A DNA stretch of 29,348 nt from a virus (IMGVR_UViG_3300005077_000007:79249-108596); one strand, 5' to 3'. Counted from the first letter of the stretch, positions 3,501-27,032 are shown. Translations and numbers: made by a program. Notes: a model not told the origin generated them from the letters alone.

Positions 3501-3962
3501 ATGTGCCTTGTTGGTAAAATAGAGGTTCCACTTCCACGGAAACTCACCGCATGGAAGGTGTTGGGGCAAAGTGGCAATACTTTCATAACGCCGATTCTCT
3601 TGAATCAAGTTTCCAGTACTGCCCCAAATGTCTCCAGCGCAACTCCGGTTCCATTTCTATTGACACCGGCATATTATCATGGCGGATTTCATATATTTCC
3701 TGTCTACGAGGATGCAAGGGAGTATCTCGAAACGTTAGTAAAAGCAGACAGCAAAACAAAGATATTCAGTAACTACTTCGACGCTCTCGTTATTGTCAAA
3801 GTAGAGGCTAAGTTAATCCGGAGTGCCGGATGGGAAGGAACCGATTCGCTTTTCGGCCCATCGGTAAATCGGAATATCCCAGTTTGCGTCGCGGAAATTA
3901 TGTCAATCGTTGGAATTGAAACGGGCTTCCATCTCAAGAAGGGATATACAATATGTGCCTAA
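3501..3962 (+). CDS. hypothetical protein, MCL/GFH family, paralog A
   Basis: 153 aa; MCLVGKI..WKVLG..YHGGFHIF..YEDA..SAGWE; clear paralog of 3953-4390. Confidence 0.8.
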   Translation: MCLVGKIEVPLPRKLTAWKVLGQSGNTFITPILLNQVSSTAPNVSSATPVPFLLTPAYYHGGFHIFPVYEDAREYLETLVKADSKTKIFSNYFDALVIVKVEAKLIRSAGWEGTDSLFGPSVNRNIPVCVAEIMSIVGIETGFHLKKGYTICA

Positions 3963-4390
3963 ACGGCAAAATTGATATTGAATTTCCAGAAAGAACCATC
4001 GGATGGAAAATACTCGGAAAGAGAGGAGAAACGTTCTTTACTCCATTTTTTGGAGAATTATTGCTAGGGGATCGTCGAAATTATTCACGCGGCGATGCAA
4101 TTCCATTCTCCACTCTCGAGGGTTCTCAGTATTACCCTGGCGGATTTCATATTTACGGAGCATACGAAGATGCAAAATATTGCATCAAAAGGTGGGTAAG
4201 GGAGAGGCTATTTAGTTATGACTATGAAAAACTAGTTCTTGTCAGCGTTGAAATTTCCAATATTTGTTCCGCTGGATGGGAACATTACGAAATGGCTCAA
4301 CACAAGTTTCCAATTTATGTTGCCGGAGATATGAAAATTCTCGAGGAATTGATCGTTTATCAACTCAGGGGAAAAAGCTATCTACAGTAA
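3953..4390 (+). CDS. hypothetical protein, MCL/GFH family, paralog B
   Basis: 145 aa; MCLNGKI..WKILG..YPGGFHIY..YEDA..SAGWE. Confidence 0.8.
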   Translation: MCLNGKIDIEFPERTIGWKILGKRGETFFTPFFGELLLGDRRNYSRGDAIPFSTLEGSQYYPGGFHIYGAYEDAKYCIKRWVRERLFSYDYEKLVLVSVEISNICSAGWEHYEMAQHKFPIYVAGDMKILEELIVYQLRGKSYLQ

Positions 4391-4800: not shown

Positions 4801-4839
4801 AAAAAAAAACGGTTGCTGGGTAATTCCAGCAACCGTTTT
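4801..4839. terminator. bidirectional intrinsic terminator between convergent genes
   Basis: 14-bp perfect inverted repeat AAAACGGTTGCTGG-gtaatt-CCAGCAACCGTTTT; 9-T tail on - strand, 4-T tail on + strand. Confidence 0.85.
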
Positions 4840-4853
4840 CGCATTGCTCCTGG

Positions 4854-7043
4854 CTAATCACTAATCACTTCACCAAAGAAGGCTTTTTCCCATATCCGAA
4901 TTAAATCCTCTCGGCTCGCAAGCAAGTATGGTTTTCTGTCGAAGTATACATAGTAATTATCATCCCCTTTCAGCTTTGCGATTTTCTTCGTGGACAATCC
5001 TTGACATGGCTGTAAGGAAAGTTCCGGATTCACCTTGGGCAATGGAATTTCAATTTTCTTCTTAAACCGAGTCCTAACTAGCAATTTCCATTCTTTCCTA
5101 TCCTTTTCCCATATCAACCAAACTGACAATGGAAATGAAATTATTGAAGCAAATCTATGCTCTCTCATTTCCTGAAATAGCGGATTAATGCTCATCCCGT
5201 TTATCCCGGCATCTATGATAGAAAAAACTGCATTCATGAACCCAAGATGTCCATGAATATCTCTTAGGGCAACGTAATCGAAATAGGTTTCAGGGACGAA
5301 CTTTGTCAACATTCGCCCGTTATTATGACAAATATTTACAACATTATTGAGCTTCCCAATCATACTTCCCCAGGTATCGTAATTCGGGTTCTTGATGAAC
5401 GCATCGATCGATTTTAATAGAAAGCTCGTTGACGCAGCGCATATACGCCACTTATAGCCACCGAATCCACCTTCCCATTCTGAGGAAGAAAATGCGTGAA
5501 GCGATTCAATGAACATTTCCATAATAGCGTCTTGCGATTCCCCCTCAAGGTGTCGATAGATTGTATCTCTTGACAAGGGATATCGAGGATCTTTGCATTT
5601 TTTATATATCTGTAATTTACCGGCCGCTCGCCAGTGGCGCGATTCCCCAATGCAAGCCTCAATGCCACGCAATGCTATTGCTCCGACCCCAACACCAACA
5701 AGGAACGCCCCTTCGCTCGTAAGACACATTCTATCAGCGTGGTGTGCCGCAAAGATTCCGATAATAGTAGAAGGATCATTCTCACCAACATTACTCCGTG
5801 TTGAAAACGAAATCCCACGAACAATCGAATCGTAGCATATTTCGCGCGTGGTGTTTCTTTTTAACCGTTCGCCAATATTGACCTTTCTAGTAATAATAAC
5901 AGCCGGAACACCATGACATTTCGCCTGCATAGCGACGTGCGACGTTGGGGAACCATCGATGATATTCACGCAAAGGTTTCTTTTATCCAACTTAGACAAA
6001 GAAGCCATTCGCCGCTCCCATTCCATATTGTCAATATCTTCATTTACCGTAATGATTCGCTTAACAACGAAATCCTTTGCGATATAATCAAGATGGTCGC
6101 CTGGGGATATGCATGGACGAAGTTGTACCGGAATTGCTCCAACAGCCCCAAGGGAATTAAGTGACTTATCCGTCACGGTAGAAGTATTTCCTTTTCTATA
6201 AACCGTTTCTATGAAAGGTATTTCGGATTTCTCGTTAGAGAATCGTGCCGCAATTTTAATCCTAGCGGGCAAGACGATGGGATGAATGAGAATATTAATG
6301 GTTTTTCCCATCCCGGTTGCCCCGTCCGTTCCGTGCCCAATCGATATGATATTCGATATGACCGAGGAGAATTGCGCGTTAATATATGGCATCAACAACA
6401 TTTCACCCTCGGGCGATTCATCCTGAATCATCTTCAGTAAGTTTACCAACTCTTTCCTTGTGTGAACTACCCGCGATTCAAAATATCCGTGCCGGGGGCG
6501 AATCGGGCATGGACGTGCCATGACAAGAATTTTCTTTTTTCTGAAAAGTGGAACCGATTTTTTCATGAACTCATCAATGCCTGACTCGTCCTGAATGACA
6601 AATGCAAATTTGGCTAGCACATAGGAGCCGTGCGAAGCTCCTCGTAGTATCGAGGGAAGTAATTTTACGCCAGCGGCCTTTTGTGTGCGAATTTGATCCA
6701 TCGCTATTGTATCGATTGCGTGCCGATTATCGAATCTGGCCATGCTCAACCCCCCAGACATTGATTCAACATGAACGACCTTTGAGAATGCCTTAATGGC
6801 ATAATGACCGAATTTGCCAATTTTGAATTTTGATCCCTTGCGAGGAGTGGTGCTCGTCGTGTTTCCATCATCGCTTAATACAGTAATTTTCAAACAATCA
6901 TTTTCTATCTCTTTGGCAACTTCCTTAACAAGGGTATCGAACGTTCCATTTTCGACCTGGCAAATCTGGTCAAACTTCTCGATAAGCTGCCCTAATGGAT
7001 GGATAATCTCGGCCTTATACTGAATGATCTTAGGATTTGACAA
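4854..7043 (-). CDS. PEP-utilizing-enzyme/dikinase-like protein: ATP-grasp domain + phospho-histidine swivel domain + unassigned C-terminal domain
   Basis: 729 aa, TTG start with GGGAGG RBS; swivel motif GSPTSHVAMQAKCHGVPAV (His369); PPDK/PEPS N-domain-like segments TQKAAG, VMARPCP..HG, LLMPYINAQFSSVI, IGHGTDGATG, PFIETVY, PVQLRP; no recognisable pyruvate-binding TIM barrel. Confidence 0.8.
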   Translation of the reverse strand: MSNPKIIQYKAEIIHPLGQLIEKFDQICQVENGTFDTLVKEVAKEIENDCLKITVLSDDGNTTSTTPRKGSKFKIGKFGHYAIKAFSKVVHVESMSGGLSMARFDNRHAIDTIAMDQIRTQKAAGVKLLPSILRGASHGSYVLAKFAFVIQDESGIDEFMKKSVPLFRKKKILVMARPCPIRPRHGYFESRVVHTRKELVNLLKMIQDESPEGEMLLMPYINAQFSSVISNIISIGHGTDGATGMGKTINILIHPIVLPARIKIAARFSNEKSEIPFIETVYRKGNTSTVTDKSLNSLGAVGAIPVQLRPCISPGDHLDYIAKDFVVKRIITVNEDIDNMEWERRMASLSKLDKRNLCVNIIDGSPTSHVAMQAKCHGVPAVIITRKVNIGERLKRNTTREICYDSIVRGISFSTRSNVGENDPSTIIGIFAAHHADRMCLTSEGAFLVGVGVGAIALRGIEACIGESRHWRAAGKLQIYKKCKDPRYPLSRDTIYRHLEGESQDAIMEMFIESLHAFSSSEWEGGFGGYKWRICAASTSFLLKSIDAFIKNPNYDTWGSMIGKLNNVVNICHNNGRMLTKFVPETYFDYVALRDIHGHLGFMNAVFSIIDAGINGMSINPLFQEMREHRFASIISFPLSVWLIWEKDRKEWKLLVRTRFKKKIEIPLPKVNPELSLQPCQGLSTKKIAKLKGDDNYYVYFDRKPYLLASREDLIRIWEKAFFGEVISD

Positions 7044-7077
7044 CCCGTTTCCTCCCTGCTACACTAGGATGATAAGC

Positions 7078-7106
7078 AGTCTACCATGCCCAACCGCGCT
7101 TGGCAA
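7078..7106 (-). promoter_or_regulatory. sigma70-type promoter for the dikinase-like gene
   Basis: On - strand: TTGCCA-17 nt-TAGACT with TG extended -10, ending 35 nt upstream of the start codon. Confidence 0.7.
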
Positions 7107-7132
7107 GGTTGGATTAACCAAGGAAAGGCATT

Positions 7133-7345
7133 ATGAGAAAGCCGAAAGTTTACAGGAAGAATAGTAAGGGAATGTTCACGGTTTACACCTCTAGAAAAGA
7201 AATTTATGCAATCCCAGAGGAAAGATTAGCGAAAATTGCCAGCATGTTGCATGAGAATATGCCACCACGCGAGGCATCTCCGCTATTTCCGCTCGATAAG
7301 TCCGACGTGGCTTTTCTAAAGAAAACTTTTCCAAGAGGCGTATAA
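7133..7345 (+). CDS. hypothetical protein
   Basis: 70 aa; AAGGAAAGG RBS; TAATG coupling to the next gene. Confidence 0.65.
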   Translation: MRKPKVYRKNSKGMFTVYTSRKEIYAIPEERLAKIASMLHENMPPREASPLFPLDKSDVAFLKKTFPRGV

Positions 7346-7650
7346 TGCTTGAAGCACATCTCATTGATAAAGCGTTTTTTGCAATTATTGATAGTCAGCA
7401 ATCCCCCGGGAAGAAGTATTATATGTGCGTCGAACCGGATGGGCTAACTGCGACTTGCACTTGCCCCGATTATCGTTTTAGACGCTCAGAGGCAACGAAG
7501 GAATGTAAACATCTCGTCGAGCTTCGAAAAGTTATCTCTCGATACGAGAATCTTATTCTTCATGAATATGAAGATTTTACCATTCGCACCAAACAAGACT
7601 TTGAAAAGGAAAGCCATGCAGGATTTCGCCAAGACAATTCAAGCACTTGA
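7345..7650 (+). CDS. SWIM zinc-finger protein
   Basis: CTCPDYRFRRSEATKECKH fits the CxC...CxH SWIM signature, preceded by SQQSPGKKYYM beta strands. Confidence 0.8.
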   Translation: MLEAHLIDKAFFAIIDSQQSPGKKYYMCVEPDGLTATCTCPDYRFRRSEATKECKHLVELRKVISRYENLILHEYEDFTIRTKQDFEKESHAGFRQDNSST

Positions 7651-7852
7651 AAAAAATAAACCCCGTCAATCCGGACAAGAATATCTCATTCTTGCATTCA
7701 ACGAAATTGCCAATGGGTACAAAGAGGAAATGAAAATTCTTCGTCCATATGACCAATCGACGTCCATGCTGGTCGATGTTGCGTTTCATATGGAGAAACG
7801 CGCAAATGGTATTGCAGCAATCCTCCTTCTTCCCCGTCCAGTAGAGAAGTGA
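7616..7852 (+). CDS. hypothetical protein
   Basis: ORF 7562-7852, likely ATG at 7616 after AAGGA. Confidence 0.6.
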   Translation: MQDFAKTIQALEKNKPRQSGQEYLILAFNEIANGYKEEMKILRPYDQSTSMLVDVAFHMEKRANGIAAILLLPRPVEK

Positions 7853-8274
7853 ATATGAAATTTTTCATTGCTGCACAAGATAACGGGGAGGATGTTGCTG
7901 GCGTTATCGTCGATATGAATTCAGAAGTTGCAGCATATTACGCTGAACTCATATGGCTCGTTGACGAAATGGCAAAGCAATATGGAATATTCATGGTCGA
8001 GGCGCGAGCTGTTGACCAAAAGCATCCAACCAATGAGGTTTGGATTTTGAACAATAAAGAAACCGAAGCTTACATCAAGTCGTCAATTGGCGTACCGATT
8101 GACGATAAGGAATATTATGAATTTCTTCAGCATTCCATTGGAAAAGCTGAGGAGAAAACCTTATGCGTAGAGAAGGATGGAGTTTTCTTTACGATGTCTG
8201 GCTACTCGGAAAGCGTGTGGTCAATGAAATTAACAGCAGAACAAATACAATGGGCATCAAAAAAGAGTCTATGA
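7849..8274 (+). CDS. hypothetical protein
   Basis: 141 aa; overlaps both neighbours by 4 nt. Confidence 0.7.
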   Translation: MNMKFFIAAQDNGEDVAGVIVDMNSEVAAYYAELIWLVDEMAKQYGIFMVEARAVDQKHPTNEVWILNNKETEAYIKSSIGVPIDDKEYYEFLQHSIGKAEEKTLCVEKDGVFFTMSGYSESVWSMKLTAEQIQWASKKSL

Positions 8275-9272
8275 AATATAGCATGAAAAAGAAGCAAACA
8301 AAACATTCGAAAAAACAGCACCATCCGTCCTCTGACTCACGTTACTCTCCAACAAAAAAGAGTACCGTCGCCGTCAAGGGTGGATATGTTTCTGGATTTC
8401 TCAGCACTTGTAAGCATTACATTGAACCAACGATTACATTCGATGGTTTGACTATTTGTGCTGGAAGCGCAACGATGTCGTCATATAAAGATATTGTTGA
8501 TTCCGGCGCGGAGGTCATGATTGATCTTACCGGTGACACTCACAAGCCTCTCCATTCGCACGGTTTCGTAAAGTGCGCAAATTCAGAAATCTCCGATCGT
8601 CTCAATAGGAAAATGAAAAGGAGTATCGAGTTCATTTATCTTGATTGGGATGATTATACAGCCCCTCCGGTTGGTCTTGATTTCTGGCAGGAACTGAAAA
8701 CGCTCATTAAGGAAAAGCAGTGGAAAACCATTGCCCTTGGGTGCGTCGGTGGTCATGGCCGTACTGGCACAGCTATTTGTGCGCTTATGATCGCACATGG
8801 TTATTCAGCAGAATCGGCCATCAAGAATGTTCGGGAAATTTACTGCAAGAAATGTGTAGAGAACGAATCGCAACGGCGGTACCTCTATGAACTTTCCGGT
8901 GAAGAATATGTTCCACCGGCAATAAAGATTACGCCAGAAGAGAGAAGCACTAATCCGTATTCCCGAGAACTTGAGTTTACTTCTGATTTCGAAATCGATG
9001 ATCTCCCTGATTTTTCTGATATCTTTGCTCGTGAAATCATCGATTATCTTGAAGCAACCGATGAATTTGACATTGTTCAATCGAAGAGTGGGTATAAGGT
9101 AACTGCAAGAAATAATCACATTTTCTTTGAGTTACCAATCGGCACACAGTATCTTAGTGAGGATGACCTGGAAAATGCTTTGAAAAAAATCGCCATCGTC
9201 ATGAAAATGAGTGACGCACAGGTGTATAACGAAATTATATCTGCGCCCTTCTCTAAGGAAGGGGAACTATAA
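8271..9272 (+). CDS. CX5R (PTP/dual-specificity-type) phosphatase 1 with extra C-terminal domain
   Basis: P-loop GCVGGHGRTGT (Cys codon 8742), acid loop LDWDDYTAP, Q-loop region AIKNVREIYCKKCVENESQ; start placed at the ATGA overlap at 8271 (ORF is open from 8163). Confidence 0.85.
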   Translation: MKYSMKKKQTKHSKKQHHPSSDSRYSPTKKSTVAVKGGYVSGFLSTCKHYIEPTITFDGLTICAGSATMSSYKDIVDSGAEVMIDLTGDTHKPLHSHGFVKCANSEISDRLNRKMKRSIEFIYLDWDDYTAPPVGLDFWQELKTLIKEKQWKTIALGCVGGHGRTGTAICALMIAHGYSAESAIKNVREIYCKKCVENESQRRYLYELSGEEYVPPAIKITPEERSTNPYSRELEFTSDFEIDDLPDFSDIFAREIIDYLEATDEFDIVQSKSGYKVTARNNHIFFELPIGTQYLSEDDLENALKKIAIVMKMSDAQVYNEIISAPFSKEGEL

Positions 9273-10132
9273 TGTTGGGCGTTGGTGTCCCATATGAAAG
9301 CAGTGGGCTATGCACCCATGTTCCGAAGTTTGTTCTACTACTAACCCATATGGGGAAGGAATTCCAAATTTGGACTTCACGAAAGCACGCAATTCGGAAT
9401 GATAACTGTCCGGTTGATTTGATTATCGATTGTTCGGGTTATTCTGGCAGTAGTATGAATAAGATCGTTTCCTGCCCCGATCTGCCAGAATTAGAGAAAA
9501 TCTTCGTACCTCAAGGTGCGATTATCGCTCATTTCGATTGGCCCGATCATCGAAGCATTAAAATATCCCTTTCCCAATGGAAAGAATTGCTCGATTTGTG
9601 CCATGCGCGAGATATTCGCAAGATTCTATTCTGTTGCCTCGGAGCGCACGGACGAACCGGAACGGCAATGGCTACTTTTCTTGTTGCGGCGGGGGTTGCC
9701 CCAAAGGAAGCGATTGAGCTTGTTCGTAAGCATCATTGCTCAAAAGCTATCGAATCGCGTGACCAGGTTGAATATATCCTTACAGCCTGTGGTAGCGTGG
9801 ATGTTGACGATGCTGTCATAGAGCAATACGACACAAACTCGTTCTATCGCTCTGCGGCAACTCCACTGTTTCCGTATGTTCCGCAGGATAGCACGAAGTT
9901 GCTTCCTAAGAAAACAATAAATGGTTCAGATATCCGACGGTATCTTCTCAAAAGAGGGTATGATTGTAGATACCAAATGGGTCGATCGTGGCACTGGAAA
10001 GACAGGCAAGGAGAAGAAAGGGAAGAGATTTTCATTCCCCCATACCCAACGGAACTCGAATGTCAAGAAATTATCAAAACCATTGCGAAACTCGAAGATG
10101 CTTCAATTGATTTACTAAAAGAAGAAATCTAA
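9272..10132 (+). CDS. CX5R (PTP/dual-specificity-type) phosphatase 2 with extra C-terminal domain
   Basis: P-loop CCLGAHGRTGT (Cys codon 9635), WPD loop FDWPDH, AIELVRKHHCSKAIESRDQ; TAATG coupling to phosphatase 1. Confidence 0.85.
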   Translation: MLGVGVPYESSGLCTHVPKFVLLLTHMGKEFQIWTSRKHAIRNDNCPVDLIIDCSGYSGSSMNKIVSCPDLPELEKIFVPQGAIIAHFDWPDHRSIKISLSQWKELLDLCHARDIRKILFCCLGAHGRTGTAMATFLVAAGVAPKEAIELVRKHHCSKAIESRDQVEYILTACGSVDVDDAVIEQYDTNSFYRSAATPLFPYVPQDSTKLLPKKTINGSDIRRYLLKRGYDCRYQMGRSWHWKDRQGEEREEIFIPPYPTELECQEIIKTIAKLEDASIDLLKEEI

Positions 10133-10154
10133 AAATTCATCCACGGTTAATGCA

Positions 10155-10388
10155 ATGTTTAACCCAAAAGTAGCGATTTGTAAAATCTGTGGCAAGGAAA
10201 TTCCATACGTTTATGAATTTTACCATCAATCATCAATGCATATCGAGTGTGGCACCACGGACGCCACTTTTTTGACGGTCCATGAATCGATAGAAACCCT
10301 CGTTCGACTGCTGCGTGTTTCTGGCTCCGCGCATGATCTATACGCACGGCTTGAGCGGGAAAATGTCCGTCTTGTGCGGAGGAAATAA
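10155..10388 (+). CDS. small putative Zn-binding protein
   Basis: CKICG...HIEC. Confidence 0.6.
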   Translation: MFNPKVAICKICGKEIPYVYEFYHQSSMHIECGTTDATFLTVHESIETLVRLLRVSGSAHDLYARLERENVRLVRRK

Positions 10389-10425
10389 TCCTTCTCGCGG
10401 CGAGCAAAGAAAAAATAAAAGGTGC

Positions 10426-10453
10426 TTGCCAACCCCATCTGGCGTGGTACACT
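10426..10453 (+). promoter_or_regulatory. sigma70-type promoter
   Basis: TTGCCA-16 nt-TACACT with TG extended -10 and an A-rich UP-like tract upstream; intergenic. Confidence 0.65.
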
Positions 10454-10530
10454 AGGGTCATAGTGGTGATGTGTCGTTCGGGGGGTGTCATTTAACGCCC
10501 CATCTCACACAAGAAAGGAAAAAACAGTAT

Positions 10531-10959
10531 ATGGCTCGACACAAGGAATTGGGAACAATCAATATCAACGGTAAGTCTACCAAGGTCTATGTTCGGACTG
10601 AGGGAAACAGTATGGTCTTTTGGGCGCGGATTGGGGAAATCGTGGTCGAATCCACGAATCCTCAGGAATTGGCTAATCAGGCCGAGCAGGTTTCTCTGGC
10701 TCTGGCAAAGGCCACGTTCGAACCCGCCCGTTTGGTTCGTATCACCAACAAGGTTTCTGGTATTTCTATCGAAACCTTGGATGTCCAAACGGCAAAGGTC
10801 GGCGACTACGATCTCGTGAAGATTAACGAGAATATTCGCCGTCTCGAAACTGGAATGGTTTCCGAGAACCTGTTTCAGACCGTTAAGGAAGCGGGATATA
10901 CTCCCGATCTCACGGCGCTTGATGAGGCATTCAATGGCCTCGTTGAGGCAATTCAGTAA
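10531..10959 (+). CDS. hypothetical protein
   Basis: ORF 10471-10959, likely ATG at 10531 (MARHKELG) after GAAAGGA. Confidence 0.75.
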   Translation: MARHKELGTININGKSTKVYVRTEGNSMVFWARIGEIVVESTNPQELANQAEQVSLALAKATFEPARLVRITNKVSGISIETLDVQTAKVGDYDLVKINENIRRLETGMVSENLFQTVKEAGYTPDLTALDEAFNGLVEAIQ

Positions 10960-10967
10960 GTTCCCCC

Positions 10968-11174
10968 ATGCGACACATCACACTAAGAATTACCCGAGAG
11001 GAGGCGAGGCAAATTATTGCCTCGCTTTCTCTTGATTATTCCATGTCTATTTCTCAAGAAAAAATCGAAAGAATTAGCAAGCTGAAAACCAAGGTCAGAA
11101 AACAACTTGAACAAATTTTCCGAGATAATCACCTTGTTGCGGTAAGGAATGGAGAAAAAGTTGAATCACAATAA
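10968..11174 (+). CDS. hypothetical protein
   Basis: 68-aa ORF in the array. Confidence 0.6.
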   Translation: MRHITLRITREEARQIIASLSLDYSMSISQEKIERISKLKTKVRKQLEQIFRDNHLVAVRNGEKVESQ

Positions 11175-11586
11175 CTTTATCCCCACCATTACGCAAGACA
11201 CGCGAACAACGGTTATCGTTAATTGCCCTACGGGAGACTTTCGTTTTGAAAGTCTCCCTTCTGCGCTTGTGGCAATCTATCGTCACGCTGAACAGCGGGC
11301 ATCGTATAAATACCCAATAACGGTATCGGTATTTTTGGATAAATCTATCTCAATAAATTTATTTCGTGAATCCTGGGTTTCCGTCATTGGGCCGATTGAT
11401 TACATTCAATGTTCAAGAATGGAAGCGACGGGCGCGGTCGTGAACGACCAGATGAAGATTGAATCACTACCATCATGCTGGTTTATTTCACAGACGTTCA
11501 GGCGGATTCCAGAATATCCAGAGGGAACACCGGATGTTCCAAGCGTCCTTGGGATTTTGGAGCTATGCAGCATCTACCATACCTAA
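11149..11586 (+). CDS. hypothetical protein
   Basis: 145-aa ORF in the array. Confidence 0.65.
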   Translation: MEKKLNHNNFIPTITQDTRTTVIVNCPTGDFRFESLPSALVAIYRHAEQRASYKYPITVSVFLDKSISINLFRESWVSVIGPIDYIQCSRMEATGAVVNDQMKIESLPSCWFISQTFRRIPEYPEGTPDVPSVLGILELCSIYHT

Positions 11587-11598
11587 AAGGAAAAAGCT

Positions 11599-12054
11599 AT
11601 GAGCAAAGATAAAGAGAATTCACTTTCGTTTGGATTTAAATATGTCAATCTTTCGCAAGCGCCAATCATGACTGTTGGAGCACTCTGCGATGATGCGAAT
11701 GATCGAATTGATCTGATTATGAAGGATGTTCTGGAGACTATCCAGAACGATGGCAAGGCCGGGGATCTTGTTGAGAGAATTGTTTACGAAATTGGGGAAA
11801 TCGGTATTCAGCTTCTCCGATCTCGCGTTCTTCTCTTGGAATCAACGAACCTCAGACCAAATGGATTTGAAAAAGTTCTCGATGATACTGTGAACGAGAT
11901 ACGAAATCGCTCCGCTTTGCTTATTAAATCCTGCCCATCCCGAAGCGAGAGAATTCAAGTCATCCTTGACGATCTCAATGAATACGCTACGATGAAGAAA
12001 GAGATGTACGATGCGCTCAATGAAAAATCGGAAAGTGAAAATGTAGAAAAATGA
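11599..12054 (+). CDS. hypothetical helical protein
   Basis: 151 aa; AAGGA RBS. Confidence 0.7.
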   Translation: MSKDKENSLSFGFKYVNLSQAPIMTVGALCDDANDRIDLIMKDVLETIQNDGKAGDLVERIVYEIGEIGIQLLRSRVLLLESTNLRPNGFEKVLDDTVNEIRNRSALLIKSCPSRSERIQVILDDLNEYATMKKEMYDALNEKSESENVEK

Positions 12055-12581
12055 GGAGAACCTATTTCATAATAGACGTAGAAGCGGACGGGCCATATCC
12101 ACCGCAATTCAGTATGGTATCGCTTGGTGCGGTGAAATTGACTCGATCGCTTGATACGCTCTTTTTCGGAAGCTGCGCGCCAATCAGCGATACCTATTGC
12201 CAAAAAAGCCTGAACGTATGCCAACTCCCGAGAGAGCTTACCTTGAAATACGAACATCCGTATGTCACAATGAACGCATTTCGTATGTGGCTAGAGGATC
12301 ATACGGATGGGATTCCGGTATTTGTCACGGATAATCTTGCTTTTGATTGGCAATTTATGAATTACTACCTGTATACCTATACGGGTAGTAATCCTTTTGG
12401 GTATTCGGGCGTTCGTATCAACGATTTGTGGAGCGGCCTGAATAGAAAAATGGGCATCAAGTGGAAGCATCTTCGACGAACAAAGCATACCCATAATCCG
12501 GTAGATGACGCCAAGGGCAATGCGGAAGCTTTGATGCATATGATCGATAAATATTCGCTCAACATTGATATTCCGCTATGA
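12051..12581 (+). CDS. DEDDh 3'-5' exonuclease (DnaQ-like; RNase AS/Rv2179c-like)
   Basis: ExoI IDVEADG, ExoII DNLAFDW, ExoIII HNPVDDA. Confidence 0.88.
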   Translation: MRRTYFIIDVEADGPYPPQFSMVSLGAVKLTRSLDTLFFGSCAPISDTYCQKSLNVCQLPRELTLKYEHPYVTMNAFRMWLEDHTDGIPVFVTDNLAFDWQFMNYYLYTYTGSNPFGYSGVRINDLWSGLNRKMGIKWKHLRRTKHTHNPVDDAKGNAEALMHMIDKYSLNIDIPL

Positions 12582-12760
12582 AACACGATCCCAATATACA
12601 GTTAACGTATCTACCAAACCAGAAAGCGTACGCCGTGCGCTTTCATAAGAAATACCTTGGCCTTATTCGGTTTCAGCCACCGCAGTATCCATTTTCAAAG
12701 GAAACCGCAGAAAGGAAATCCAATGCGTGTCCTCGGGGAGACAACCCTCATCGCAAATAG
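12578..12760 (+). CDS. hypothetical protein
   Basis: 60 aa; ATGA overlap. Confidence 0.5.
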   Translation: MKHDPNIQLTYLPNQKAYAVRFHKKYLGLIRFQPPQYPFSKETAERKSNACPRGDNPHRK

Positions 12761-13477: not shown

Positions 13478-13552
13478 GCACCCGTACCTCAATTCAGGTA
13501 GAGGAGGCCCCTTATAAGGGCTCAGTTGCGGGTTCGAATCCCGCCGGGTGCA
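13478..13552 (+). tRNA. trnI: tRNA-Ile, anticodon TAT (UAU); CCA not encoded
   Basis: Cloverleaf: acceptor GCACCCG/CGGGTGC, D-stem CCTC/GAGG, anticodon stem GGCCC/GGGCT with loop CTTATAA (TAT at 13513-13515), T-arm GCGGG-TTCGAAT-CCCGC, discriminator A. Confidence 0.92.
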
Positions 13553-22667: not shown

Positions 22668-25600
22668 TTAGCTAATAGCGCATTGTTCGCCATTGCAGTA
22701 CGCATCGGTTACCTCATGCGCCGTGAGGGCGCTCGAATGCACTGAACTGACATTGCTCATTATTTGAGTATACTTTTCTTCGTCGATGGCGATATACGGG
22801 GCTTGCTCGTACTGGTGATCGGTAAGCGGCAGGAAGCTCACGCTCTTTATCCGATCTTCGAAGATTGATAAAACTCTTTCTATATCGTGGGCTTCTTGTT
22901 CCTTGAAGGTTATGGTCGCACTGACTTGATTATCCGCCCAATGCCATTGCAGAGCTTCGAGGAGAAGCAACTGATCCTGCATGGAGACATCATTCTTTCC
23001 GCATCGATAATCTGATTCTTTTACTGGAATGGAGACGACTACGGTATTATCGCCATACACGGATTTTTCGGTTGGGTACCCGGCCTTCATTAAAGCCTCC
23101 GCGATTGGTGATCCGTCCTGGAAGCGAATGTTTCGAATATAATATTCCGAATGCGGGAAATGTATCCCGGGCGTTGATCCAGATAACAAGCTCACTGAAT
23201 TATGCGAAATATACCCATTGCCAATGTATTGATGCACGCACTCTACTTCCACGTCCATCGTTACGCACTCGCCATTCTCAATGGCAACAATCGCGTCCAA
23301 CCATTCATTTCGAGAAACCGCCCGCTCCTTTAACGATCGAGCGATATATCTTGATTGTTCTTCGTTATACATTGCGTCACGCGATGAAATAACCCAACGG
23401 TCCCTACTCCCCCACTCGCCGGGGCCAGCGCATTTAATTTTGACATTATACCCGACGAGACGCATGAGAACCGCCATCTTTTGAGCAAAGCTCTTAGACA
23501 CGGTGCATACTGACCACGTAGAAGCATTATGAATACCGCCATCGGCCCGCCAGAATCCGGCAATAAACGCACGAATACTCTCAGCGGAAGCATGTCGAAT
23601 AATGGCAGGAACTTCGATATTTTCAGCAAAATCCTTCAGACATCCATTCATCCTCAACCATTCAATCAAATGAACAGAGTTGATTTGATAACTTACCCCG
23701 CTGGAACTTTTCTTATGCTCAATTGTGACGTTGAGACCAAATGTATCCTGACAAAATGACCTGAGCCACTGGTATACCGCCGGATGCTTTCCGTTTCCGG
23801 CGATACGAATTCCATTCGCATGAACACTTCCATTTCCATAAAATAGACCAAGAAACCACGCAATGTCGGGGTTCATATTTTCGGGAGAACGAAGGCCGTA
23901 TGTTCTTTTATTTTCTTCAACATCGAGCTTCAGGAGAGCAGGTTCATCTTCTTTTGTATATATATTCAGTTTCGCAATGAGCGAATCTCCAACCCGCAAC
24001 TGCGATGCCTCAAGAAAAAGCCGTGAATCACCACGCAAAACTTCCATCTTATGATTATTAGTCATTTCGAGCTCGAAACCATCTTGAGTAAGAATTCTCC
24101 TTGTTTTTGCCATTCCGTTATTGAAAAGTTTTGTAATTCGACGTTTTCCGAACTGCGTATCTGCGTATAATTCTTCATGGATGTTTTGCCAACCGGGAAT
24201 TTTCATATCAATGAGTTCTTTGAACTCATATATGCCATTTGACGTGGAAATGAGACTATTTTCGCTCCAACACCCGCTGGGCTTAACGGTTGACACCTTA
24301 ATGGAGTTTGGCACACAGAGCCACCGAGAGTATAACTTATCCAATTCGCGCAAATACCGATATCCCTTATCGAGCGCAACCATAGTTGCGCGGAATCCCC
24401 ATCGATTAATGGCCTGCACCACACCGGTTACTCCAACGCCAATGCGTCTATTTCTGCCAACGACCGCGTTAACGTATACATCGTGCGTAGGGATAAGTGT
24501 AACGGTCTTATTGTATAAGTATGCAAATTTCAATGCGTAGCTTAATTCATCAAGCGAGCTTAATCTATTTAACGGTATCTCGCTGAGATTACAGAGTTCG
24601 CCATCCGATAGCGCAATTTCACCGCAATTGGTTGTGCATACTCCCGTCATGTTCCCGCTGTCTGAATTCATCGTAACGATGACATAATTATGATACGTAT
24701 CCACCGTAATATTGTACACATCCTCGGCATCGTCTAGCTGCCTGACGGATTTAACGCGACAATTATGTAGTTCCGCGCGAGATTGCAAATCAGAAAAGCT
24801 TCTTAATGCATATGGATTATATACTGGCGTTTCGTTACACCGAAAACGATAAGGAACCCCGTCTTTCCGACATTGGAAAATCCATTCTTTTTGCATTGGG
24901 TCACGACCGAGTTGAAACTTCAAGTCGTTGTATATACGCAATTGGGATTCTAAGGTTTCCTTCTGCCTATTCTTTAGGCTTTCTAGTTGACGCCCTTTCC
25001 TGAGTGGCAATTGGGCAAGACGTTGGTAGTGCTTGGACCGCATGGCGGATTGACACTCGCTTGAGCAATAAGCAATCTCCCGTCGATGCCATCGAACCTC
25101 AAATGGCGTTCCGCACTCCTCGCACGCCCTTTTAACATAAAGCTTCCCACCGACCATTACTACAGGGAGATCGGTTGTGTCGATAATCTCTAGGTACTTC
25201 CTTTGCCATTTATCTCTTGCGACCTTCGACATTCGTTTTCGGGAATCATCGGTTATAACCTTTTTCTGTGCGTCACTCATTCTCTCTATATAGAAAGGAT
25301 CGGCGCATCGCTCGATAGCTTTCTGACGAATCTTTTCCTTCCGCTCCTCGGAACACGGAACCCCAAACGATGGATTTTTCGCACCGCTCACGTCTCTTTG
25401 GGAATTATGGTAACGAATGTGTTCAATAGCATCCATGATCTCGAGGTTCCCAACAGAGTTGTCCAATGTATTATGATTTTTATGGTGGACAACCAGGTTC
25501 CCGATACTTCTCCCTACCGTAACGGACCCATCGTAAGAGGATTCCCACCTCTCCTTATTATGAAACCTCGCTATCATGCGATGTTCCATCTCGAACCGTA

Positions 25601-27032
25601 ACGGAACGGTACTAATAAGAATCTTGGCGTACTTGTCACAACTTTTTTGATTATATTTCTCAATGGACTTTCTAAACTGTACGACCGCATCGCCGTTGGC
25701 TAGCTCATCTGCACGCTTCTCGGTTCCGTCTCGCATCTTGAATTTATGGTTCGGGGTAACGCGGGTTTTTCCTCCATTGGTAAATTCTACTTCGACTATC
25801 CGCTGATTATACCCAGTTATCCTCGGGTTCCTCCCCGTCGAGATTGTCATTCGACCTTCGTTATCAATGCAATAGACGGGCACATCCTTCCCTTCCGCAG
25901 CTAATTGCTCAATCGGCACGGCACCCCTACCGTCAGCTACCGCAATAAGGGTATCGCCAGTTACGCATGGATTAGTTCCCCTTACTTCTATATCATGCTC
26001 CCCGTATCCATCCTTTGTTCTTCCGTAATGGCGTGCATTGCCCAACCAGAATAATCCAGGCTCTCCATTTTGTCGAATTAAATCGGCAATAGCCTTATAG
26101 TCCATACCGACTTCTGCAAAGATGGAATTATTACTGGCGAATCGATGAGAGAGGAGTTCTTTTTTGTATTTTTGTGGATTTTTGAGTTCAATAAATTCAT
26201 CACAGAATGGCCCTAATGCTAATTGCGCGGACCTGCGGCTGGCGCCGGAAACAATGCAACGCCCAATCCAGTTAAAAATATCAACGATTGCCGTAATAGT
26301 AATAGGCTTTCCAATCAGATTACTGAGTATAACGCTGATCGCTTCGTGCATTTCCTTTAATGGACCTGGGCCACTTGATGTCCCGCCAAGGCCATGCAGC
26401 TTCATTCCCGCCGGACGGACCATGGAGTAATCAAACTGCGGAAGTGGCCTGCCATACGCATACGCTTCGAGCAGTATCTTAAGTGATTCCACCCATCCCT
26501 CACGGCTATCTGGAACTTGGAAAGATATTACGCCGTTGGGTTTCTTAATGACAATCTTCCCCTCCCCTCTGACATCAAACCCAACGCCAACGCCAAGCGC
26601 CGACATATCCATCATGTATGTAAATGGACGGGCGAAATCTTCCTTGATGTTTTCTGTAGAGTGAAACGAGCAGTTGATAAGGATGGCAGATTGCTTTAAT
26701 TCTAATGATTTTGCTCCCATATGCTCAAGGCCGCGACCGGGGGGCAAGAACTTCATGTTGAAGATAAGATCATACATTCTTTGAGCAGAAAATTGCGCCT
26801 TCTGCATATTGAATGGTAGTCCGTGCATCTTACAGTGTGTTAACTGTGCGTTATACGTACCCTCAACGACACGCTGGCAAGTCTGCCACCATTCCTCAAA
26901 TTTACCATTTTCTAATTCACGAGAATAGGTTCTTTTGTATGTGACTAGCCCAACAACACCATACCCCCAATGCACCTTTCGCTTTTTATATCCATCTAGG
27001 AAATTACTTGTCAATACAAACTGCTTCACCAT
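22668..27032 (-). CDS. nrdJ: class II adenosylcobalamin-dependent ribonucleotide reductase (monomeric RTPR type) with two inteins; about 649 aa after splicing
   Basis: TYKRTYSR, FLPPGRGL, INC, PDSREGW, RRSAQ, NGEPG, GTNP|CGE, LCNLSE, NRRIGVG, TVKPSG|SVS, DNQVSATI, QAPY, C-terminal CNGEQC. Confidence 0.95.
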   Translation of the reverse strand: MVKQFVLTSNFLDGYKKRKVHWGYGVVGLVTYKRTYSRELENGKFEEWWQTCQRVVEGTYNAQLTHCKMHGLPFNMQKAQFSAQRMYDLIFNMKFLPPGRGLEHMGAKSLELKQSAILINCSFHSTENIKEDFARPFTYMMDMSALGVGVGFDVRGEGKIVIKKPNGVISFQVPDSREGWVESLKILLEAYAYGRPLPQFDYSMVRPAGMKLHGLGGTSSGPGPLKEMHEAISVILSNLIGKPITITAIVDIFNWIGRCIVSGASRRSAQLALGPFCDEFIELKNPQKYKKELLSHRFASNNSIFAEVGMDYKAIADLIRQNGEPGLFWLGNARHYGRTKDGYGEHDIEVRGTNPCVTGDTLIAVADGRGAVPIEQLAAEGKDVPVYCIDNEGRMTISTGRNPRITGYNQRIVEVEFTNGGKTRVTPNHKFKMRDGTEKRADELANGDAVVQFRKSIEKYNQKSCDKYAKILISTVPLRFEMEHRMIARFHNKERWESSYDGSVTVGRSIGNLVVHHKNHNTLDNSVGNLEIMDAIEHIRYHNSQRDVSGAKNPSFGVPCSEERKEKIRQKAIERCADPFYIERMSDAQKKVITDDSRKRMSKVARDKWQRKYLEIIDTTDLPVVMVGGKLYVKRACEECGTPFEVRWHRREIAYCSSECQSAMRSKHYQRLAQLPLRKGRQLESLKNRQKETLESQLRIYNDLKFQLGRDPMQKEWIFQCRKDGVPYRFRCNETPVYNPYALRSFSDLQSRAELHNCRVKSVRQLDDAEDVYNITVDTYHNYVIVTMNSDSGNMTGVCTTNCGEIALSDGELCNLSEIPLNRLSSLDELSYALKFAYLYNKTVTLIPTHDVYVNAVVGRNRRIGVGVTGVVQAINRWGFRATMVALDKGYRYLRELDKLYSRWLCVPNSIKVSTVKPSGCWSENSLISTSNGIYEFKELIDMKIPGWQNIHEELYADTQFGKRRITKLFNNGMAKTRRILTQDGFELEMTNNHKMEVLRGDSRLFLEASQLRVGDSLIAKLNIYTKEDEPALLKLDVEENKRTYGLRSPENMNPDIAWFLGLFYGNGSVHANGIRIAGNGKHPAVYQWLRSFCQDTFGLNVTIEHKKSSSGVSYQINSVHLIEWLRMNGCLKDFAENIEVPAIIRHASAESIRAFIAGFWRADGGIHNASTWSVCTVSKSFAQKMAVLMRLVGYNVKIKCAGPGEWGSRDRWVISSRDAMYNEEQSRYIARSLKERAVSRNEWLDAIVAIENGECVTMDVEVECVHQYIGNGYISHNSVSLLSGSTPGIHFPHSEYYIRNIRFQDGSPIAEALMKAGYPTEKSVYGDNTVVVSIPVKESDYRCGKNDVSMQDQLLLLEALQWHWADNQVSATITFKEQEAHDIERVLSIFEDRIKSVSFLPLTDHQYEQAPYIAIDEEKYTQIMSNVSSVHSSALTAHEVTDAYCNGEQCAIS
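23199..24272 (-). mobile_element. intein 2 (358 aa, residues 921-1278) with LAGLIDADG homing endonuclease
   Basis: Starts CWSENSLISTSNG; block B EMTNNHKM; LGLFYGNG and FIAGFWRADG motifs; ends TMDVEVE..HQYIGNGYISHN then S+1. Confidence 0.92.
24627..25967 (-). mobile_element. intein 1 (447 aa, residues 356-802) with HNH homing endonuclease
   Basis: Starts CVTGDTLIAVADG; block B RVTPNHKF; ends VYNITVDTYHNY...GVCTTN then C+1; internal EHRMIA..VVHHKNHNTLDNSVGNLE (HNH) and NUMOD3-like NPSFGVPCSEERKEKI. Confidence 0.9.

Follow-up and report, generated by a model that had tools for sequence, protein, structure and literature searches.

Dikinases that carry phosphate on a swivelling phosphohistidine domain include pyruvate phosphate dikinase (PPDK) and phosphoenolpyruvate (PEP) synthase (PDB 1DIK, 2OLS), both with a TIM-barrel, rifampin phosphotransferase (RPH; RPH-Lm, PDB 5HV1/5HV2; PMC4844700), whose swivel domain is C-terminal, and, in plant starch metabolism, glucan water dikinase, which is paired with the CX5R dual-specificity phosphatases SEX4 and LSF2 on one substrate. 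Among phages, T4 Pnkp likewise couples an early kinase and a phosphatase on one substrate, where the two act sequentially rather than in opposition. Here we describe a viral locus that would combine such activities in a different form. It lies within a stretch of 29,348 nucleotides (IMGVR_UViG_3300005077_000007:79249-108596, hereafter the window) and encodes a 729-residue His-swivel dikinase-like protein, P0001, together with two CX5R phosphatases, P0002 and P0003. The locus is a second, rearranged copy of a widespread phage module, which is real, belongs to known enzyme superfamilies and is mislabelled in published genomes.

By analogy only, the arrangement would follow the same logic as that of glucan water dikinase and SEX4/LSF2, but the module carries no carbohydrate-binding modules, the domain order of the dikinase differs and SEX4/LSF2 are not the nearest phosphatase structures. 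In P0001 the swivel domain is central, in contrast to its C-terminal position in RPH, which also has no partner phosphatase and to whose acceptor domain that of P0001 bears no demonstrable homology. Compared with PPDK and PEP synthase, P0001 has a helical domain where those enzymes have the TIM-barrel, and sequence similarity is undetectable except around the histidine. The folds of T4 Pnkp (P-loop kinase, HAD phosphatase) are unrelated, and the module has no consistent ligase partner.

The association of the dikinase with the phosphatase is seen across many loci. When viral contigs are searched with a profile of the dikinase, 75 distinct loci are identified, giving 76 sources with the window's own genome. 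Nearly all 75 are matched by tblastn with P0002 or P0003, usually 0–2 kb downstream of the dikinase, and in nearly every locus the phosphatase follows directly on the same strand, often overlapping the dikinase gene. When all open reading frames (ORFs) are clustered, the dikinase is found in 72 of the 76 sources and the phosphatase in 71, and the next commonest family reaches 22, all from one phage clade, with no third gene common to the loci. Since tblastn detects the phosphatase family in 16 of 50,697 phage records, this linkage is far beyond chance, and the absence of linkage that the first-pass annotation had named as the outcome that would overturn its pairing of dikinase and phosphatases is not what the genomes show. 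The two genes form a genuine self-contained module, carried by ~1000 sequence clusters that are nearly all viral. Its signature, a dikinase whose helical domain contains ExRH, GGxxW and HNGG motifs and a neighbouring phosphatase of the pattern CxH...WPD...CxGGHGRTG...VRxxYCxxAVE, is present in the window.

Four cellular loci were also found, with the phosphatase following the dikinase in three of them (Chloroflexi, Salinarimonas and one Acidobacteria). The Chloroflexi metagenome-assembled genome JACPOP010000015.1 holds a cellular or integrated copy at 6999-12686, encoding an 882-aa dikinase and a 431-aa phosphatase, with an integrase-like ORF upstream and an RNA ligase (PF09414, 32.5 bits) ~1 kb downstream. 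In two Acidobacteria genomes, a conserved ORF of ~185 aa belonging to no known family is located just upstream of the dikinase (7231-7791 and 6203-6760, respectively).

P0001 is a member of a large family, with 938 representative homologues at E<=1e-3 in an exhaustive HMMER search, 810 of them below 1e-10, that have in common a core corresponding to residues 118–611. An alignment of 60 sequences, which was used to define invariant residues and as the search profile, contains 24 invariant positions; P0001 keeps all 24, eight of which concentrate in its helical domain. His369 is invariant in the 60 homologues and sits in the T-S-H369 motif of P0001, within a family consensus of G-x-x-T-S-H...G-[IV]-P, and His470, although not strictly invariant, is kept by at least 90% of the sequences in the alignment. 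The AlphaFold (AF2) model built on the family alignment has a predicted local distance difference test (pLDDT) score of 76, exceeds 90 in the core and is confident across residues 110–612. A structural match spanning two domains covers residues 109–397 of the model (VIA-align against the best Foldseek PDB chains), where a predicted N-terminal ATP-grasp domain of the PPDK/PEP synthase/RPH type is followed by a swivel phosphohistidine domain with the conserved T-S-H. Indeed, hhalign places His369 opposite His421 of E. coli PpsA. Library searches with the single sequence or the 60-sequence profile returned a sub-threshold match of the Pfam PEP-utilizers family (PF00391) to residues 363–388 (E 0.066) and nothing further from Pfam, PHROGs, NCBIfam, PADLOC or PDB sequences. 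The 729-aa enzyme with ATP-grasp and phosphohistidine domains that had been proposed from the sequence is thereby borne out for its histidine, and the ATP-grasp part, which is invisible to Pfam, NCBIfam and PHROGs, is seen in the predicted fold.

The remaining parts of P0001 are less familiar. The helical acceptor domain matches no recognised family, and the N-terminal residues 1–109 have no family match. A word-indexed homologue search recovered only P0001 itself with the protein as query and a single match with the acceptor-domain profile, and Pfam revealed no informative fusions in 47 long dikinase relatives. The C-terminal residues 616–729 have no Pfam match. Within them, residues ~695-723 (4857-4940) resemble PDB 2dla, a 'hypothetical protein' of Pyrococcus horikoshii, at 15 of 26 positions, a similarity that is non-significant (E 0.24).

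The absence of the PEP/pyruvate barrel, implied by the first-pass annotation, is confirmed, as residues 395–729 have no Pfam or NCBIfam match and the model is all-helical at 404–613. This bears on the proposal that such genes are genuine PPDK or PEP synthase auxiliary metabolic genes that boost host glycolysis or gluconeogenesis, as argued in PMC12038007; published papers treat the phage 'PPDK' as a glycolytic auxiliary gene (PMC12038007, PMC9229204), and the cultured relatives are annotated 'pyruvate phosphate dikinase'. We regard the proposal as extremely improbable, since P0001 lacks both the TIM-barrel and any match to these families, with residues 398–615 being helical, and PEP metabolism offers no role for its obligate partners, the phosphatase and the acceptor domain. 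Even for the 645-aa 'PPDK' of Stenotrophomonas phage DLP5, the match to a true PPDK is confined to the N-terminal and central regions (NF004531, 464 bits, above cut-off). Thus, the glycolytic auxiliary-gene reading is not supported by the architecture.

Cultured phages of Vibrio, Stenotrophomonas, Rhizobium and Rhodobacter carry a split version of the module. In DLP5 and in Rhodobacter phage RcZahn, the 'pyruvate phosphate dikinase' is followed by small genes, a phosphatase, a protein of ~340 aa, a second phosphatase, a few further genes and DNA polymerase I, and the same gene order is observed in Vibrio phage Virtus. The helical domain of P0001 has a separately encoded homologue in the ~340-aa protein (hhalign probability 97%, E 4e-11; hidden Markov model (HMM) E 1e-10 and 9e-9), which shares its GG-x2-W and HNGG...NK motifs, and both phosphatases of DLP5 and RcZahn belong to the family of P0002 and P0003 (HMM 1e-20 to 1e-28). 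The DLP5 'PPDK' itself has no significant similarity to the profile of P0001 and its homologues. The cultured-phage sets (Stenotrophomonas DLP5/DLP3, RcZahn and the Vibrio SIO-2/Virtus/J26 group) therefore resemble the window in their phosphatase and acceptor-domain families and in having two phosphatases, but keep the acceptor domain separate and employ a PPDK-derived dikinase, whereas in the window a very divergent dikinase and the acceptor domain form one protein. Fused and split modules are equivalent, and the dikinase engine is exchangeable; because two unrelated engines are attached to the same acceptor domain and phosphatases, it is in the latter that the specific function resides. We note that the DLP5 gene labelled 'thymidylate synthase ThyX' (MG189906.1, 5629-6417) is a CX5R phosphatase of the P0002/P0003 family, and the name 'thymidylate synthase' of PHROG 17568 is therefore a propagated misannotation.

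The phosphatases of the window retain their catalytic features. P0002 carries LGCVGGHGRTGT and DWDD, with Asp163 (in WDD), Cys194 and Arg200 in its DSP/PTP domain, and P0003 carries CCLGAHGRTGT and DWPD, with Trp90-Pro91-Asp92, Cys122, Arg128, Glu161 and Gln165 in the corresponding domain. All of the CX5R loops (CVGGHGR, CLGAHGR) and acid loops (DWDD, DWPD) described earlier are thus present, and both proteins have the PTP fold, a C-X5-R(S/T) loop and a general-acid aspartate. Asp92 (in W-P-D), Cys122, Gly127, Arg128, Gly130, Glu161 and Gln165 (P0003 numbering) are invariant in 52 phosphatases of the family, and Thr129 is nearly so. Matches to general DSP/PTP models are weak: P0002 reaches 22.1 bits against Pfam Y_phosphatase (cut-off 20.9) and E 3e-5 against PTP-SAK, for which the two window proteins score 24.6 and 25.4, below the cut-off of 27, and the third phosphatase copy of the genome has a Pfam score of 34.7. 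Both match PHROG 17568 clearly (P0002, E 3e-16). The description of the two genes as translationally coupled paralogues also holds, the P0002 stop and P0003 start overlapping by 1 nt and the proteins being 33% identical over 110 aa (E 5e-17), even though the phosphatase tree is unresolved, with long branches, and does not demonstrate P0002 and P0003 to be sisters. The start of P0002 is more likely ATG 8250 or 8271, the latter giving an ATGA overlap with the upstream stop. From their sequences, P0002 and P0003 look catalytically competent.

These features also speak to a possible phosphorelay, in which the CX5R cysteine would accept phosphate from the phosphohistidine as a carrier, in the manner of EIIB of the PEP:sugar phosphotransferase system (PTS), instead of hydrolysing a substrate. 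Translational coupling of the genes in most loci and a swivel domain common to PTS enzyme I would be in keeping with such a carrier, but the phosphatases keep the general-acid aspartate and a Ser/Thr after the arginine, and the invariant Glu161 and Gln165 may recall a water-positioning Q-loop. Hydrolysis is favoured by the WPD aspartate, by the threonine after the arginine and, more tentatively, by the invariant Glu/Gln that follow the P-loop, and we consider a relay very unlikely.

Both phosphatases bear appendages. An Atlas model of P0002 residues 280–360 superposes on HicA-family clusters (TM 0.58/0.73) and also on a viral cluster in which the same domain is joined to an HD_4 hydrolase, which hints at a HicA-like assignment for this short predicted domain. 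The C-terminal domain of P0003 is modelled as alpha-beta-beta-alpha; its residues 215-285 (9914-10126) show a weak similarity (E 0.0035) to the N-terminus of the PADLOC candidate defence protein PDC-M02B. Pfam searches of the 52 phosphatases revealed rare Zn-ribbon fusions and no other informative ones. A complex prediction for P0001 (110–729) with P0003 gave a score of 0.00 and carries no weight either way.

The genome of the window contains two dikinases, 32% identical to each other, and three phosphatases. The other copy is a canonical overlapping pair located ~2-4 kb before the window and ~7 kb from the window copy; two modules are likewise present in a related 112-kb phage, but there they are 55% identical and each has the canonical arrangement. 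By comparison, the window copy is atypical in that the dikinase is inverted and divergent from the phosphatases, the genes are 1.1 kb apart with four ORFan genes between them, and there are two phosphatases. The first-pass annotation had placed the dikinase ~1.2 kb from the phosphatases, in agreement with the observed gap of 1.1-1.2 kb between the P0001 start and the first phosphatase, but had not mentioned the minus-strand divergence. The retention of two diverged copies by one phage suggests more than one target or specificity.

The divergent arrangement raises the question of whether the neighbourhood is a coincidence, P0001 being an independent inverted moron and P0002 and P0003 either serving the upstream canonical dikinase or acting alone. 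In favour of this view, P0001 is encoded on the opposite strand and has a separate promoter-like site as well as a strong terminator, and the other copy is just 7 kb away. However, an overlapping phosphatase is already paired with the other dikinase, few phages contain the phosphatase family (at the frequency given above), and DLP5 and RcZahn each have two phosphatases for a single dikinase and a single acceptor. A chance neighbourhood is accordingly given very little credence.

The gap itself is filled by four small ORFs that run in the same direction as the phosphatases. They have no family matches in Pfam, PHROGs or PADLOC and no homologues in the 75 related loci. The 101-aa ORF contains a SWIM-type CxC-x15-CxH motif, and the small genes, this one included, had been raised as possible members of the system; since small ORFs near modules show no enrichment of the motif (3 of 772, compared with 4 of 1266 elsewhere), the SWIM protein is rejected as a module part.

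Table 1. Coordinates of the genes, domains and predicted signals of the locus, numbered from the first nucleotide of the window
Feature	Coordinates	Strand	Basis or residues
P0001, 729-aa His-swivel dikinase-like	4854..7043	-	ORF and translation
P0001 N-terminal extension, residues 1-109, specific to this copy	6717..7043	-	pLDDT 31-58
P0001 predicted ATP-grasp nucleotide-binding domain, residues ~110-315	6099..6716	-	invariant Q121, K122, R177, E279, Q307, R309
P0001 swivel phosphohistidine domain, residues ~316-397, G-S-P-T-S-H369 and G-V-P	5853..6098	-	structure and alignment
P0001 helical acceptor domain, residues ~398-615	5199..5852	-	invariant E467, R469, G528, G529, W532, H573, N574, K581
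P0001 C-terminal tail, residues 616-729, beta-rich with a helix, lacking family conservation	4857..5198	-	model, low pLDDT
P0002, Lys-rich N-terminus, DSP/PTP domain ~95-250, HicA-like C-terminal domain ~280-360	8163..9272	+	
P0003, DSP/PTP domain ~11-180, C-terminal alpha-beta-beta-alpha domain ~215-286	9272..10132	+	
Four small ORFs, 70, 101, 96 and 141 aa	7133..8274	+	translations
Putative bidirectional intrinsic terminator: A9, GC-rich 10-bp stem, 6-nt loop, T4	4802..4842	.	sequence reading
Two interleaved sigma-70-like sites in the divergent intergenic region	7037..7106	.	consensus scan only

We suggest that the dikinase and phosphatases probably act as one unit on a shared target or pathway other than pyruvate. 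By analogy with PPDK, PEP synthase and RPH, the ATP-grasp domain would use ATP to phosphorylate His369, releasing AMP and Pi, after which the swivel domain would bring the phosphoryl group on His369 to the helical C-terminal domain. There, Glu467 and Arg469 may take the role of the catalytic Arg-Glu pair of RPH, assisted by Lys581, His470, His573 and Asn574, with His573, Asn574 and Trp532 possibly binding an acceptor that would not be pyruvate. P0002 and P0003 would act as phosphomonoester hydrolases that form a phospho-Cys intermediate. The target or pathway that the enzymes would share is likely to be single and common to many bacteria. The phosphatases may either oppose the dikinase on one phosphosite, as a set/reset or proofreading pair, or take part in a sequential edit in which one phosphate is added and another removed, as T4 Pnkp does on nucleic-acid ends. 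The interpretation of the first-pass annotation as a whole, namely a reversible phosphorylation circuit, is thus partly supported.

As to the class of target, we lean weakly towards one linked to nucleic acids (RNA or DNA ends, or nucleotides), a reading that nevertheless falls well short of even. The lean arises from the HicA-like, Zn-ribbon and basic appendages of the phosphatases, in particular the Lys-rich N-terminus of P0002 and the Zn-ribbon fusions of some relatives, together with the genomic setting, for which the RNA ligase at the Chloroflexi locus provides a further hint. A family A DNA polymerase is encoded in 20 of 26 near-complete records, usually 5-16 kb downstream on the same strand, and lies 1-2 kb from the module in cultured phages; this position puts the module at the head of the replication/early block and does not thereby prove a role in DNA.

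Partners expected of particular nucleic-acid pathways were sought at the genome level in 49 module-bearing viral records. RNA ligase (PF09414) is found in 11, ATP-dependent DNA ligase (PF01068) in 10, ThyA (PF00303) in 2 and ThyX (PF02511) in 8, such that none is a consistent partner. A link to end-healing of the Pnkp type is rejected on the inconsistent co-occurrence of ligases; the genome of the window has neither a PF09414 nor a PF01068 ligase, although host ligases could still serve. Pyrimidine hypermodification is likewise rejected at the genome level on the ThyA and ThyX counts, and ThyA was not found in DLP5 or RcZahn. With respect to deazaguanine, neither TGT nor QueC was found in the genome of the window, DLP5 or RcZahn. 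Outside the window, a divergent ThyX-like ORF of 283 aa is present at G000:C1:2005-2676 (-), with E 2e-15 and partial coverage of the Pfam model; the related 112-kb phage has a similar ORF, and DLP5 a weak counterpart.

The DNA of DLP5 is reported to be heavily modified, being cut by only 4 of 36 enzymes (PMC5834331), and that of Stenotrophomonas phage DLP3 resisted all 15 enzymes tried (PMC7326821). We treat this modification as a lead and not as evidence for the role of the module. A 2026 NAR (Nucleic Acids Research) paper was considered as an explanation of the modified DLP3 DNA and rejected, as it concerns an unrelated Acinetobacter phage DLP3.

Two other classes of target are each unlikely, though not negligible. 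In the first, the module would write and erase phosphate on a host or phage protein, with a Tyr, Ser, Thr or His residue of a conserved bacterial protein phosphorylated for host takeover and reset by the PTP-fold enzymes. The closest phosphatase structures are indeed protein phosphatases (VHZ, DUSP28, Tk-PTP, SsoPTP, KAP and VH1), the swivel fold phosphorylates HPr in PTS enzyme I (PMC4844700), and the module occupies an early-gene position.

The second, to which we assign about the same low weight, is a small-molecule dikinase resembling RPH, by which a metabolite, for instance a host immune signal, an antibiotic-like compound or a cofactor, would be inactivated or made, the phosphatase proofreading the product or performing a second step. 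RPH is among the best single structural relatives of P0001, and language-model neighbours of the helical domain carry Rph_4th (PF27448) at a score of 0.84, but an Atlas score of this size lies in a range where chance matches are not yet rare. The RPH-like enzymes are a large group whose substrates are unknown and in which the catalytic Arg-Glu-Lys set persists (PMC4844700), and the module is self-contained with two genes, like many counter-defence genes. On the other hand, no match to the rifampin-binding domain was found in sequence or structure, where the acceptor domain was not searched alone, the domain order is unlike that of RPH, and the obligatory phosphatase would be left unexplained.

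Returning to the shared nucleic-acid-linked target that we weakly favour, it would take a still bolder step, and one we consider quite improbable, to regard the module as the first dikinase-type system that edits phosphates on macromolecules in phage-host conflict. As one example, the dikinase might phosphorylate 5' ends and a dsRBD- or HicA-tagged phosphatase might strip 3' or 5' phosphates from RNA or tRNA, thereby reversing or hiding the damage that host nucleases or tRNA-modifying toxins cause; as another, the module might underlie the heavy DNA modification reported for Stenotrophomonas phages DLP5 and DLP3. Finding the acceptor would extend the few His-swivel dikinase chemistries by a new reaction and would probably expose a new strategy of host takeover, counter-defence or nucleic-acid modification. 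Published genomes have the module under other names, with the dikinase as a glycolytic "PPDK" and one phosphatase as a "thymidylate synthase"; new here are the equivalence of split and fused forms around an exchangeable engine, the lack of co-occurrence of the expected partners and the rearranged copy with dual phosphatases.

The expression signals around P0001 can be read from the sequence. Its TTG start codon is preceded at 7 nt by a strong Shine-Dalgarno sequence, GGGAGGA, and the terminator lies between the P0001 stop and the convergent plus-strand genes, presenting a hairpin followed by nine T on the minus strand. With a promoter-like site, a Shine-Dalgarno sequence and a terminator all of its own, P0001 is apparently a monocistronic unit. 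The 89-bp divergent intergenic region contains the putative sigma-70-like sites TTGACA-17-TACACT (plus strand) and TTGCCA-17-TAGACT (minus strand), both with TG and both identified by consensus match only. Their predicted starts are ~1 nt apart, and occupancy of one of these consensus sites could block the other. No sigma-54 promoters were found in the window.

The window is the terminal 29.3 kb of a 108.6-kb viral record bearing direct terminal repeats, and a megablast of the region against phage records returned no match. A pair of tandem paralogous small genes at 3501-3962 and 3953-4390 (+) encodes proteins of 153 and 145 aa, each beginning MCL.GKI, with no family match in Pfam or PHROGs and no homologues in the 75 related loci. 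A single tRNA gene, tRNA-Ile with anticodon TAT, was identified by ARAGORN at 13478-13552 (+). The window also encodes a deoxynucleoside monophosphate (dNMP) kinase, a helicase and an intein-bearing class II ribonucleotide reductase. The latter, a B12-dependent enzyme of 1454 aa at 22668-27032 (-), contains two intein-like insertions, one with an HNH endonuclease domain and the other with a LAGLIDADG domain.

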